Shown: positions 33,329 through 36,701, counted from the stretch's first letter. The stretch: DNA of 64,000 nucleotides from Oscillatoria acuminata PCC 6304 (GCF_000317105.1 NC_019693.1:3903227-3967226), one strand, 5' to 3'. Made by a program: numbers and translations. The notes: generated by a model from the letters alone, not told the origin.

Positions 33329-33659
33329 GTTTTAAATATTCTCTGGTCAGAGAATAGGTGATAGGATAGTTCTACTATAAACAAGGTTTTCAGGGATGAA
33401 GTGATCTGGATCGAGCGATCGCCGGGGGATAAATCACCCCCGCTCCATGACGGCGATCGCTTTACTCCGGATTGCTACGATCGCTCTCACACTTCGATCC
33501 GAGGTAAAAAACAAAGTAAGTATTTTTAACTAAGCTGATTTCTCTAAAAGATGAAGTTAAAACCTAAATGACCTCAGTTCAGTGAAAGGAAAAGGTGATT
33601 TTGTCGATGAAAACGGGTACAATTCTCCTAGGGGTATTTATTCTTTAGCCTCGCCACTA

Positions 33660-34721
33660 ATGAAATGTATGATCATTCAGTTACTTCTACTTGGGATTTT
33701 ATTGCCTCTTGATGTCGCCCAAGCGGGCGAGTTAGAACCCTGGCAAGCAGAGGGGTTCGGGGACAAGCTAGAATTTTCTGCTCATGCTGCCGATTTGGAG
33801 CCTGTATTTTTCCAACCGATTCAGGGCGATCGCACTGTAGTGCTGTTGACTGAACCAAATGCCGGGGAGGGGACGGTTCACCCCCAAAGTGAGATCGCTC
33901 AAGGGGACCCCGCCACTGCACCGGAAGGAATGACCCCTCGCCAAGGGACTCCCTTACATCGGGGAATTCCCGGGGAACAACCGTTCATTCCTCAACGCAT
34001 CCCGTTTCGCCCGCGCACGGATGTTACTACTACTCAAAGCAAACCCTATGCTGCTTCTCCGGCGATTACGGTGATGACGCCCTCGGGTTATGGTGCCGGT
34101 TGGGGAAGTGCGGGATTTGGGTTGGGTTTACAGGAACGAACTCGGTTTACCGATAGCAGTGATGGGGTTGCCGGATTTGGCATTGGGTTTGGTAATCCTC
34201 GGGAAAATATTGGTTTAACCGTGGGTGTGACGGTGACGGATTTATGGGGGGATGCCTTTGAGGATGGCAGTGTGAGTTTAAAATTGCATCGACAATTGCC
34301 GAACGATTTTGGCATTGCGGCAGGGGTACAGGGAGCGCTCACTTGGGGGGAAACCGATGGGGGAACTTCTGGGTATGGTGTGGTGACGAAACGGTTTATT
34401 TTGGATGAACCCGAAAATCTTTGGAGTCAAGTGTATCTCACTCTGGGGGTTGGAGGGGGACAATACCGATCGGAATCCGATATCGAGGCAGGAGAGGGGA
34501 CGGTTGGACTATTTGGATCGGTGGCATTACGGGTTGCTCCTCCGGTGAGCGCGATCGCCGAATGGACGGGTCAGGACCTCACTTTGGGTTTGTCTGTGGT
34601 GCCGTTCCGGAATATTCCCTTGGTGATTTCTCCAGCAATTACGGATATCACCGGAAGCGCTGGAGATGGCACAAGGTTTATTCTCGGCATTGGTTATGGG
34701 TTTACGTTTGATCGGTTCTAG
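33660..34721 (+). CDS. Putative outer-membrane beta-barrel protein (Gly-rich, C-terminal Phe); the annotated ORF starts at 33582 but the signal peptide begins at M-27
   Basis: Signal peptide MKCMIIQLLLLGILLPLDVAQA. Alternating hydrophobic Gly-rich strands. C-terminus ...GIGYGFTFDRF is typical of OM beta-barrels. Confidence 0.4.
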   Translation: MKCMIIQLLLLGILLPLDVAQAGELEPWQAEGFGDKLEFSAHAADLEPVFFQPIQGDRTVVLLTEPNAGEGTVHPQSEIAQGDPATAPEGMTPRQGTPLHRGIPGEQPFIPQRIPFRPRTDVTTTQSKPYAASPAITVMTPSGYGAGWGSAGFGLGLQERTRFTDSSDGVAGFGIGFGNPRENIGLTVGVTVTDLWGDAFEDGSVSLKLHRQLPNDFGIAAGVQGALTWGETDGGTSGYGVVTKRFILDEPENLWSQVYLTLGVGGGQYRSESDIEAGEGTVGLFGSVALRVAPPVSAIAEWTGQDLTLGLSVVPFRNIPLVISPAITDITGSAGDGTRFILGIGYGFTFDRF

Positions 34722-34751
34722 GACAAGCTCTTTTATAAAAGGATACTCACA

Positions 34752-36701
34752 ATGAAACGGTTTAAGGGATGGACGAAATTGCTTTTGGCTATGACACTGG
34801 TGGCGATCGCTGCTGATCCTGCTATCACCCAGACGGCAAACCAGTCGGATATCACGGGACCCATAATAGATACACCCACGATCGTACCCGCAGGAACTAT
34901 CGAACCTGAATCTACGGTAACTCCCACAAACACTAACCCCGATACCCCAGATACTACCCCCGATACCCCAGATACTACCACCGATACCCCAGATACTACC
35001 ACCGATACTCCAGATACTACCACTGATACCCCAGATACTACCACAGACTTACCCCCTGGGGATACGTCCGTAACTCCTATTGATAGCCCAGAGGAACAGG
35101 TTATAACGACTCCCGTTCAACCCGTTGAACCGATTAACATTCAGTCGCCGGAAACCACTGCGCCAGTTGTCATCCCCGACAATCCAGAGGTTCCCATTGA
35201 AGCGGAAATTCCCCCGACTGTGGGTGAGAATAATCCCGAACCGGACCCAACAACCGAAAGTGCTAATCCCATAGAGGCGCAAATTCTCGAAGGGGCCGCC
35301 AGCAGAACGACAGAAACAGAACCGTTTAGTAACCTATCTGAGCAAGAAATCGATCGCCCGGGTTATGAAAGTCAGTTAGCTGTTGCTGATATTAGGGTGG
35401 CGGTTCAAATGTTGGAAGAATATCAGGCAATGCAGTTTAGCAATTACTTAGAAGTGGACTTGTTTGGAGAAACAGCCACTCCCGATGAAATTGCCCAAGC
35501 CTTGTATGATTTGTGGCAAGCAACGGGTAACAAGAGTGCATTTATTTATGTTTCAGCGTTAGCGAATCAATTAGAATTGGTGATGATTTTCCCCCAGAAT
35601 TTTCGAGTCGCTGGGGGCAGTTCTGAATTAGTAGCTTCGACGAATTTAGCCCAAGGACTGATTGAGAGGACGACAGATATAGCCATTCGTGAAACGGTGC
35701 CTAATGTCTCGCGGGAACAGCTTCTTGAACAGGTGCAAAACTGGCGATCGGAACTGACTAATCCCCGCAGGCGCACCAGTCAGAGTTATTTACCCGTTGC
35801 TCAATCACTCTATCAATCTCTAATCGCTCCAATGGAAGCCCAATTAGAAGCCAATGGGATTGAAACCTTAGTCTTTTCCATGGATTCAGGCTTGCGAACT
35901 CTTCCCCTAGTGGCGTTACATGATGGGGAACAGTTTTTATTGGAAAAATATGCCATTGCTTTAGTCCCCAGTTTTGGTTTAACCGATGTCACCTATTCTG
36001 ATATCCGCAACCGAGAAGTGTTAGGGATGGGTTCGGCTATTTTTGATGACCTTAATCCTCTCCCAGCGGTGCCGACTGAGTTACAAAATATTGTGAGAAA
36101 TTTTGAAATTGGAAATGTTTTCCTGAATGAACAATTCACTGCCGAAAATTTCCGAAAAACTAACCAAGAAAACCGATATGGAATTATCCATTTAGCAACT
36201 CACGCGGAATTTCAAGGGGGAAGTTTAGCTAATTCTTATATCAAGTTTTTTGATAGCCGAGTTGGACTGAACCAAATTCGAGATTTAGCCACGGAACTCG
36301 GGTGGAATACCGCGCAAAATCCTCCCATTGAACTATTAACCCTAAGTGCCTGTCGGACCGCAGTGGGAGATACAGAAGCTGAGTTAGGATTTGCGGGTTT
36401 AGCGGTACTTTCTGGGGCGAAGGCATCGTTAGCCAGTTTCTGGTATGTCAGCGATGCAGGAACCCTGGGATTAATGAGTGAATTTTATTCCCAATTAGCG
36501 GAAAAACCACTGAAAGCCGAAGCGTTACGGCAAACCCAACTGGCGCTATTAAGGGGAGAGGTTCGCATAGAAAATGGGATGTTATTGCTCTCGAATGGTA
36601 CAACTGTTCCCCTACCACCGGAATTAGCAGTCCAAGGAAATTTGACCCTATCTCACCCTTATTTTTGGTCGGCGTTTACCATGATTGGAAACTGGAATTA
36701 A
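34752..36701 (+). CDS. CHAT-domain (caspase-like) peptidase with signal peptide and Thr/Pro/Asp tandem-repeat linker
   Basis: 649 aa. Signal peptide MKRFKGWTKLLLAMTLVAIAA. (TPDTTTD)n repeats. CHAT catalytic dyad context HLATHAEF (His) and LSACRTAVG (Cys). Confidence 0.75.
   Translation: MKRFKGWTKLLLAMTLVAIAADPAITQTANQSDITGPIIDTPTIVPAGTIEPESTVTPTNTNPDTPDTTPDTPDTTTDTPDTTTDTPDTTTDTPDTTTDLPPGDTSVTPIDSPEEQVITTPVQPVEPINIQSPETTAPVVIPDNPEVPIEAEIPPTVGENNPEPDPTTESANPIEAQILEGAASRTTETEPFSNLSEQEIDRPGYESQLAVADIRVAVQMLEEYQAMQFSNYLEVDLFGETATPDEIAQALYDLWQATGNKSAFIYVSALANQLELVMIFPQNFRVAGGSSELVASTNLAQGLIERTTDIAIRETVPNVSREQLLEQVQNWRSELTNPRRRTSQSYLPVAQSLYQSLIAPMEAQLEANGIETLVFSMDSGLRTLPLVALHDGEQFLLEKYAIALVPSFGLTDVTYSDIRNREVLGMGSAIFDDLNPLPAVPTELQNIVRNFEIGNVFLNEQFTAENFRKTNQENRYGIIHLATHAEFQGGSLANSYIKFFDSRVGLNQIRDLATELGWNTAQNPPIELLTLSACRTAVGDTEAELGFAGLAVLSGAKASLASFWYVSDAGTLGLMSEFYSQLAEKPLKAEALRQTQLALLRGEVRIENGMLLLSNGTTVPLPPELAVQGNLTLSHPYFWSAFTMIGNWN
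34938..35046 (+). repeat. 21-bp coding tandem repeat (CCCGATACCCCAGATACTACC; encodes TPDTTTD, about 5 units)
   Basis: Direct tandem repetition is visible in the DNA. The antisense ORF 34733-35044 (VVSGVS)n is its mirror. Confidence 0.8.

Follow-up and report, generated by a model that had tools for sequence, protein, structure and literature searches.

What does an outer-membrane barrel protein do when it is encoded immediately upstream of an exported, caspase-like protease? The question is raised by two co-directional open reading frames, here called ORF-A and ORF-B, in a stretch of 64,000 nucleotides from Oscillatoria acuminata PCC 6304 (GCF_000317105.1 NC_019693.1:3903227-3967226), which we refer to as the window and from whose first letter positions are counted. 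An earlier note on this DNA had read ORF-B as a CHAT protease with a signal peptide and a C-terminal caspase-like His/Cys dyad, and ORF-A as an outer-membrane barrel with a C-terminal Phe, and had supposed that the two make up a surface or secretion module. Both gene assignments were borne out, neither of the refuting outcomes that the note had named (a missing CHAT match or a missing barrel) having occurred, and the idea of a module gained support from the synteny of the two genes in cyanobacteria and from a short tag at the mature N-terminus of the protease that occurs only where the barrel gene is present. The pair is a conserved cyanobacterial cassette, and we think it somewhat probable that the barrel serves specifically to export the protease and/or to anchor it at the outer membrane, with the N-terminal tag as the element that the barrel recognises. 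The evidence for this reading is computational throughout and mutually consistent.

Barrel and protease as a conserved pair

ORF-B matches the Pfam family CHAT (PF12770) with E = 9.4e-63 and 212.8 bits (cut-off 24), over residues 348-647 and positions 2-289 of the 289-position profile, and is 100% identical to an O. acuminata entry named 'CHAT domain-containing protein'; the ORF-A product is likewise 100% identical to an entry from this organism. The dyad of ORF-B is intact: His480 and His484 (IIHLATH-A) and Cys534 (LLTLSAC-R), the last being the sole Cys in the protein, are invariant in an alignment of 44 sequences. By analogy to the SHG motif of caspases, His484 is the probable catalytic His, His480 being equally invariant. 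The fold is caspase-like, and the closest solved folds include Csx29 (Craspase) and SAVED-CHAT. A profile made from the CHAT alignment found nothing among PDB sequences, and a Pfam scan of ORF-B revealed no TPR, SAVED or other sensor domain.

Signal peptides were judged by hydropathy, charge and cleavage-site pattern, and by these heuristics both products are predicted to be exported via Sec. ORF-A opens with MKCMIIQLLLLGILLPLDVAQA, with hydropathy values of 2.1-2.9 over its first 12 windows. The N-terminus of ORF-B, MKRFKGWTKLLLAMTLVAIAADPAIT followed by Q, resembles a Sec signal peptide in the arrangement of its charged and hydrophobic residues, with K/R residues and a hydrophobic core, LLLAMTLVAIAA, that reaches 2.8 on the Kyte-Doolittle scale, and a cleavage-like (A/V/G)-x-(A/S/T) site followed by Q recurs family-wide among barrel-associated CHAT proteins. 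For ORF-A, homologues and the NCBI model (P0001; 350 residues, start ATG 33669) back a start at ATG 33660 or 33669; the GTG at 33582, with which the stretch flagged in the earlier note begins, just marks the longest possible reading frame.

An AlphaFold2 model of ORF-A built with 44 homologues has 12 beta-strands over residues 150-349, with predicted local distance difference test (pLDDT) values of ~80-92, behind 145 disordered N-terminal residues. In most strands lipid-facing hydrophobic residues alternate with Gly, Ser or Thr, and the residues that face the lumen are Gly-rich. The protein ends in ...GYGFTFDRF, with a terminal Phe as in an outer-membrane beta-signal (family consensus ...GYxFSF). 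The best conserved barrel residues lie in predicted outward loops or in the lumen (QERTRF, TDGG, GGGQYRSE, EWTGQD, TDITGSAGDG); such conserved polar motifs are unusual for a plain porin and point to a conserved ligand. Ahead of the barrel, a basic segment modelled with low confidence follows the family pattern LHR..E.PF.PQRIPFRPR and holds seven invariant residues (L99, P111, P115, P134, P141, S142 and G145).

The ORF-A family comprises 1120 representatives at 50% identity, of which the 150 best were inspected for architecture. The barrel forms the extreme C-terminus in all 150, the named members are all cyanobacterial, and their only annotation is 'hypothetical'. Among long family members, 8 of 10 carry two or three S-layer homology (SLH) domains N-terminal of the barrel; SLH-bearing distant members include P0251, P0267, P0383 and P0385, and a further case is found in the region 6001..9442 of locus L084. 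SLH domains bind peptidoglycan-linked polymers; from their position ahead of the barrel, the N-terminal region is assigned to the periplasm, and the orientation of the barrel is settled thereby. ORF-A itself has no match in Pfam or NCBIfam, a Pfam scan of 44 aligned family members gave only sub-threshold hits (DUF3996, 0.016; OMP_b-brl, 0.25), and an ORF-A profile retrieved nothing relevant from PDB sequences. We therefore treat ORF-A as belonging to a new, unannotated barrel family, for which only the comparison of folds was informative.

How firmly the two genes go together was read from 81 barrel loci, namely 80 genomic loci with an ORF-A homologue plus one more. At 61 of them a co-directional CHAT homologue follows within 2.5 kb, at two others it lies at 2.6-3 kb, behind very long linkers, and at 16 the contig ends too early to judge; a co-directional CHAT gene thus follows the barrel gene in 63 of the 65 evaluable loci. 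Incomplete reading frames just after the barrel gene, on contigs that end too early, still open with the tag (13 cases). The carriers belong to Oscillatoriales (Laspinema, Microseira, Microcoleus, Symploca, Argonema), Nostocales (Calothrix, Nostoc, Aulosira, Dolichospermum, Anabaena) and Pleurocapsales and their relatives (Waterburya, Pleurocapsa, Myxosarcina, Stanieria, Prochloron), with Spirulina and Allocoleopsis besides. Searching from the CHAT side yields the same pairing, as in Anabaena lutea (L085), Chondrocystis (L167) and Oxynema (L168). Both SLH-type barrels examined, in L084 and in L057 (the latter judged to be SLH-type by its long N-terminal region), are likewise followed by a tagged CHAT gene; that of L084 has no domain in the precomputed Pfam record. 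In Oxynema sp. CENA135 (L168, 1..6665) three CHAT paralogues stand in tandem behind a single barrel gene, and every one of them has a signal peptide and carries the tag (NQSD or NMSD) once or twice.

A sister CHAT subfamily, ~45% identical to ORF-B in the protease region and devoid of the tag, served as control. Of the 80 metagenomic loci fetched for it, 47 could be evaluated, and none of these 47 has a barrel gene upstream of the CHAT gene. Many sister proteins (760-1746 residues) have N-termini resembling those of two-partner secretion (TPS) proteins (...PAADGTGT...), and one, P0226, is an explicit fusion of PF05860 (TPS) and PF12770 (CHAT) with no barrel gene adjacent. At least two different N-terminal devices therefore serve to route closely related CHAT domains, the short tag being the one that accompanies the 12-stranded barrel.

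The layout of the two genes is operon-like. The barrel-CHAT spacer has a median of 30 bp over the 63 loci, and in O. acuminata the spacer, with a sequence resembling a ribosome-binding site, is consistent with an operon junction. ORF-A and ORF-B also share a reading frame, with TAG and 30 nt between them (34719..34751). Spacer length is divisible by three at 32 of 59 loci (binomial p = 0.0013, phylogeny ignored), which may go back to a fused ancestor or just to clade inheritance; because each ORF has its own signal peptide and the p value is uncorrected for phylogeny, we do not take the shared frame as evidence of readthrough. A promoter scan found no sigma-70-type promoter, an Rfam scan of 33200-37000 found no RNA family, and the hairpin listed in Table 1 marks a possible operon end on weak evidence, because such sites are no commoner in this region than in shuffled sequence.

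Tag, linker and genomic surroundings

Directly after the signal peptide, nearly every barrel-associated CHAT protein carries the sequence Q-[ST]-G-N-[QM]-S-D-[IV]-T-[GL]-P-[ND]-P-x-E. Over 112 distinct sequences the Q is conserved at 96%, the S at 100%, the D at 96% and the P at 92%; O. acuminata ORF-B has QTANQSDITGP. Some proteins hold the tag two to four times (L001, L013, L085, L168). In ~1.5 Mb of fetched cyanobacterial DNA, it is confined to genes downstream of a barrel gene. A 44-residue tag profile was also run in search of cargo other than CHAT proteins, with 130 candidates collected and three short fragments returned.

A pentapeptide, [ST]-D-[IV]-T-G, is common family-wide to loop 11 of the barrel (PAITDITGSAGDG, 34635..34670) and to the tag (NQSDITGP, 34839..34862). 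The likeness was noticed post hoc, with a rough chance estimate of ~1e-3, and may stem from mimicry of a strand or loop during docking.

The tag is joined to the conserved C-terminal 454 residues by a linker that is hypervariable in the family, ranging from almost nothing (the conserved domain beginning at residue 54) to ~970 residues, and from 16 to 974 residues in the set analysed for composition. It is rich in Glu (18%), Pro (14%), Thr (14%) and Asp (8.5%), has a net charge of -0.17 per residue and is nearly free of aromatic, Cys and basic residues. A ruler spanning the periplasm, shared between linker and barrel protein, was considered and dropped, since the length of the barrel N-terminal region set against that of the CHAT linker gave no signal (rho = -0.18, p = 0.15).

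The tandem repeat lies within this linker. It had been described as five perfect 21-bp units, and both period and unit count hold; Tandem Repeats Finder reports 34932..35044 with period 21, 5.4 copies and no indels, at 94% matches rather than perfection, and only two of the five units are identical in DNA. The accompanying description as similar to a variable-number tandem repeat is apt in a comparative sense. Arrays differ among Laspinema/Oscillatoria relatives, although the neighbouring vault-protein and UreC sequences are 95-98% identical, the types there being 12-bp units (TPTD or TPTE) repeated 10-13 times, 15-bp units and a 6-bp TP unit repeated 36 times; more distant relatives have 15-, 21- and 27-bp units. 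This turnover was compared between species, O. acuminata being represented by one sequence. In the O. acuminata locus and nine relatives all periods are divisible by three (6, 12, 15, 21, 24, 27 and larger multiples), which, of the phase or length variation named in the earlier note, excludes on/off phase variation and leaves length variation alone as possible. The 21-bp unit itself preserves the frame, and slippage could therefore alter the length of the protein and not turn its expression off. Judged from its sequence, then, the tract is a fast-evolving spacer of variable length and not an on/off switch.

Table 1. Features of the barrel-protease locus (positions in the window)
Feature	Position	Strand	Remarks
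ORF-A, 12-stranded outer-membrane barrel protein, 353 aa	33660..34721	+	Alternative start ATG 33669; GTG 33582 gives longest possible ORF
ORF-A signal peptide, MKCMIIQLLLLGILLPLDVAQA	33660..33725	+	Predicted by heuristics; cleavage-like site between AQA and G
ORF-A variable disordered N-terminal region, putatively periplasmic	33726..33944	+	pLDDT < 50; not alignable across family
Basic pre-barrel segment, GTPLHRGIPGEQPFIPQRIPFRPR...PYAASPAITVMTPSGYGAGWG	33945..34106	+	Candidate plug or docking site (putative function)
Transmembrane beta-barrel, 12 strands, aa 150-349	34107..34706	+	AlphaFold2 model and alignment
Last strand and C-terminal aromatic beta-signal, RFILGIGYGFTFDRF	34674..34718	+	
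ORF-A/ORF-B intergenic spacer, 30 bp	34722..34751	+	Ribosome-binding-like AAGGA at 34739-34743, 8 nt 5' of ORF-B ATG
ORF-B, exported CHAT (caspase-fold) cysteine protease, 649 aa	34752..36701	+	PF12770 match
ORF-B Sec signal peptide, aa 1-26	34752..34829	+	Predicted by heuristics only; predicted cleavage between AIT and Q
Mature N-terminal tag, QTANQSDITGPIIDT	34830..34874	+	Proposed barrel-targeting or anchoring peptide
Disordered acidic linker rich in Pro/Thr/Glu/Asp, ~aa 42-197	34875..35342	+	pLDDT 33-42 and composition
In-frame tandem repeat, 21 bp	34932..35045	+	Five units in codon register (34941-35045), the first DTPDTTP and the other four DTPDTTT
CHAT protease domain, aa 348-647	35793..36692	+	Putative catalytic His484 (36201-36203) and Cys534 (36351-36353)
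Terminator-like GC-rich hairpin and T-tract, 52 nt past ORF-B stop	36753..36783	+	Hairpin at 36753-36773; possible operon end, weak evidence

Housekeeping genes surround the cassette, and they do not accompany the pair in a conserved way. Upstream and on the opposite strand it adjoins a full-length homologue of the eukaryotic Major Vault Protein (MVP; 30674..33328, minus strand), which matches four Vault repeat families and MVP_shoulder with E values down to 3e-68 and has counterparts of 92-98% identity in Laspinema relatives; MVP homologues of cyanobacteria are known from earlier work (bioRxiv 10.1101/872010; PMC3762200). Directly downstream lies ureC, the gene for the urease alpha subunit (36943..38676, plus strand), with neither ureA nor ureB beside it. 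The vault-protein homologue, ureC and the ORF at 39253 were considered as possible parts of the module and rejected, their place next to the cassette being kept only within the Laspinema clade. Farther off, a gene with a PIN domain (VapC-like) and a small antitoxin-like gene (DUF2281) overlap, next to that of an AIPR (abortive-infection-type) protein (28138..30441, minus strand), and this group looks like a small toxin-antitoxin or defence islet amid housekeeping genes. At 47636..50710 (plus strand), a hybrid histidine kinase carries an N-terminal ETR1_N domain, resembling that of plant ethylene receptors (E = 7e-37).

Exporter, anchor, tether or channel

In the reading that we favour, the two genes would form an operon conserved in filamentous, pleurocapsalean and some other cyanobacteria, with both products exported via Sec. 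ORF-A would take its place in the outer membrane as a beta-barrel of 12 strands, leaving its variable N-terminal region, which in some lineages holds the peptidoglycan-binding SLH domains, in the periplasm. Signal-peptide cleavage would expose the near-invariant tag, Q-S/T-G-N-Q/M-S-D-I/V-T-G-P-N-P, at the N-terminus of the protease, for recognition by the barrel or by its pre-barrel segment. The barrel would then translocate the protease over the outer membrane and/or hold it there, in the manner of type V or Fap-type 12-stranded barrels, and the acidic repeat linker, rich in Pro, Thr and Glu, would connect the N-terminus bound by the barrel to the folded protease as a flexible stalk, free to evolve in length; the protease may cleave envelope or extracellular substrates. 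What the analysis shows is the barrel fold, the membership of the protease in the CHAT family with an intact dyad, the operon-like layout, the synteny, the joint occurrence of tag and barrel and the variability of the linker; that the barrel binds the tag, which way the protease is carried, whether it ends up at the surface or in the periplasm, its activity and its substrates are what we infer here. We favour export or surface display because sister CHAT domains use TPS and because linker length is unconstrained.

Several points weigh against an exporter or anchor. A 12-stranded barrel alone is narrow for a domain of 450 residues, and known systems of this kind need the beta-barrel assembly machinery (BAM) complex or unfolded substrates. 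The AlphaFold2 model has neither a plug helix of the FapF type nor a coiled coil, and the Pfam, NCBIfam and PDB profile searches reveal no sequence-level kinship of the barrel to known secretion barrel families. The conserved polar motifs in loops and lumen would also fit a selective channel. No natural fusion of barrel and CHAT domain, which would be Rosetta-stone evidence for their association, occurs among the 150 best relatives, and two barrel loci (L038, L047) have no adjacent CHAT gene. Finally, barrel binding, translocation and surface exposure of the protease are themselves inferred.

A serious rival, though one we hold to be rather unlikely, keeps the protease inside the outer membrane: the tag would dock on the periplasmic face of ORF-A or on its pre-barrel segment, and the protease would hang into the periplasm without ever crossing the outer membrane, processing periplasmic or cell-wall-associated proteins, while SLH-bearing barrels would also tie the complex to peptidoglycan. 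Such a tether draws on the same synteny and tag evidence as the exporter or anchor; moreover, the N-terminal region of the barrel protein and its conserved basic pre-barrel segment are periplasmic, and no large domain need pass a narrow barrel. What tells against it is that the ~45% identical sister CHAT domains are fused to TPS domains, which are marks of outer-membrane export, that a linker of 0 to nearly 1000 residues is ill-suited to a compartment of fixed width, and that the length of the barrel N-terminal region and that of the CHAT linker are uncorrelated in the comparison given above. Hypervariable acidic Pro/Thr linkers are, besides, more typical of surface or extracellular proteins. 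If the protease is periplasmic instead, the cassette would still be a new module of the cell envelope, a protease tethered to the outer membrane.

The conserved polar residues of loops and lumen, which could form a selectivity filter, suit another alternative, in which ORF-A is a specific, KdgM/NanC-like channel for the import or export of peptides or another small solute made or processed by the protease, the two being co-regulated and not binding each other. We regard such metabolic coupling as improbable, since it leaves unexplained both the near-invariant 13-residue tag, present in almost all barrel-associated CHAT proteins and absent from barrel-less ones, and the occasional two- to four-fold duplication of that tag, and since the flanking genes are neither concerned with nutrient uptake nor conserved with the pair. 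That the protease is instead an effector of programmed cell death or anti-phage defence, the role suggested in the earlier note, with the repeat tract as a phase-variable contingency locus, has very little probability: Csx29 of Craspase and SAVED-CHAT are defence effectors as well as the closest solved folds, and a tandem repeat does exist, but the Sec signal peptide places the protease outside the cytoplasm, in which those effectors act, ORF-B lacks TPR, SAVED and other sensor domains, PADLOC gave no significant match (best E = 0.003-0.004, 14-15 bits), the repeat periods are all multiples of three and allow no on/off switching by frameshift, and the cassette lies amid housekeeping genes.

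Returning to the barrel as exporter and/or anchor, a bolder version can be put forward tentatively, as a possibility on which we lay more doubt than trust. The cassette might be a hitherto unrecognised, 'split' type V-like or Fap-like pathway for export and display, in which a stand-alone barrel, fastened to peptidoglycan via SLH domains in some cases, recognises QSGNQSDITGPNP, feeds the cargo outwards and retains it by non-covalent anchoring on a hypervariable stalk, so that caspase-like proteases are displayed on multicellular cyanobacteria; the shared [ST]-D-I-T-G would then be docking mimicry.

How proteins cross the outer membrane of cyanobacteria is poorly understood, and many cyanobacterial CHAT-domain proteins are listed without a stated function in the databases searched. 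The present data offer testable points, namely that one large CHAT subfamily is extracytoplasmic and strictly paired with an unannotated family of 12-stranded barrels, and that a short tag predicts the pairing. We found no literature on the pairing of barrel and CHAT protein in open-access text, and the cassette looks like an undescribed way to export or anchor a protease at the cell envelope. Should the barrel prove to be an exporter or anchor, the cassette would join type V, two-partner, curli and Fap secretion as a new solution to the pairing of barrel and cargo; cyanobacterial biotechnology would gain a compact tag for secretion or display, and there would be an entry to the role of surface caspase-like proteases in filamentous cyanobacteria.

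Relation to known secretion systems and CHAT proteases

Type V systems resemble the cassette, especially the inverse autotransporters of type Ve (intimin/invasin) and the beta-domains of classical autotransporters. In type Ve there is a likeness of arrangement, the domain order of barrel and then passenger being the gene order found here. The LysM domain before the intimin barrel has a counterpart in the SLH domains before some barrels of the ORF-A family, both being periplasmic and peptidoglycan-binding, and a 12-stranded barrel is common to type V systems and the cassette, as is a passenger, here an enzyme, carried on a long low-complexity stalk. Types Va and Ve differ in that barrel and passenger are one polypeptide there, whereas here they are two ORFs, separated by TAG and 30 nt and provided with two signal peptides, which sets the cassette apart from both types; ORF-A has no Autotransporter or intimin-family match in Pfam. 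Since the two polypeptides are separate, attachment here would be non-covalent, via the N-terminal tag.

Two-partner secretion (type Vb) likewise combines a cargo that bears an N-terminal recognition module with a dedicated outer-membrane barrel. The TPS domain, however, has ~250 residues, compared to 13-15 in the cassette's tag, and TpsB is a 16-stranded barrel of the Omp85 type with POTRA domains, whereas ORF-A has 12 strands and no POTRA domain. Pfam scans found neither PF05860 in ORF-B nor POTRA or ShlB-type domains in ORF-A, and by its domains the cassette thus falls outside type Vb. In curli secretion the substrate is directed to its channel by a short peptide at the mature N-terminus; CsgA bears this N22 signal and CsgG is the channel.

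FapF is structurally closest to ORF-A, and FapF and FapC provide a further parallel, namely a 12-stranded barrel dedicated to a class of Sec-exported substrate from the same operon. Sequence identity between the two barrels is 13%, with no family-level match, and the ORF-A model shows neither coiled coil nor plug helix. The cargoes differ too, that of Fap being an amyloid subunit and that of the cassette a folded protease of 450 residues.

On the side of the protease, PorU, of the attachment complex of the type IX secretion system (T9SS), likewise has the caspase fold, and this cysteine peptidase is kept at the cell surface by its partner, the outer-membrane barrel PorV. The cassette resembles this pair in combining genes for a caspase-fold peptidase and an outer-membrane barrel, and differs from PorU-PorV and from the gingipains in having no T9SS C-terminal domain and no T9SS context, and in belonging to another phylum; moreover, PorV is a larger, FadL-like barrel, unlike the barrel class of ORF-A. 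Within Pfam, ORF-B shares its family with HetF of Nostoc. The His/Cys dyad of ORF-B is common to the solved CHAT proteases Csx29 (TPR-CHAT, Craspase), separase, SAVED-CHAT and DdvA, from all of which ORF-B differs in being Sec-exported and free of TPR, SAVED and transmembrane sensor domains, and in having instead a mature N-terminal tag, a repeat linker and a partner barrel.

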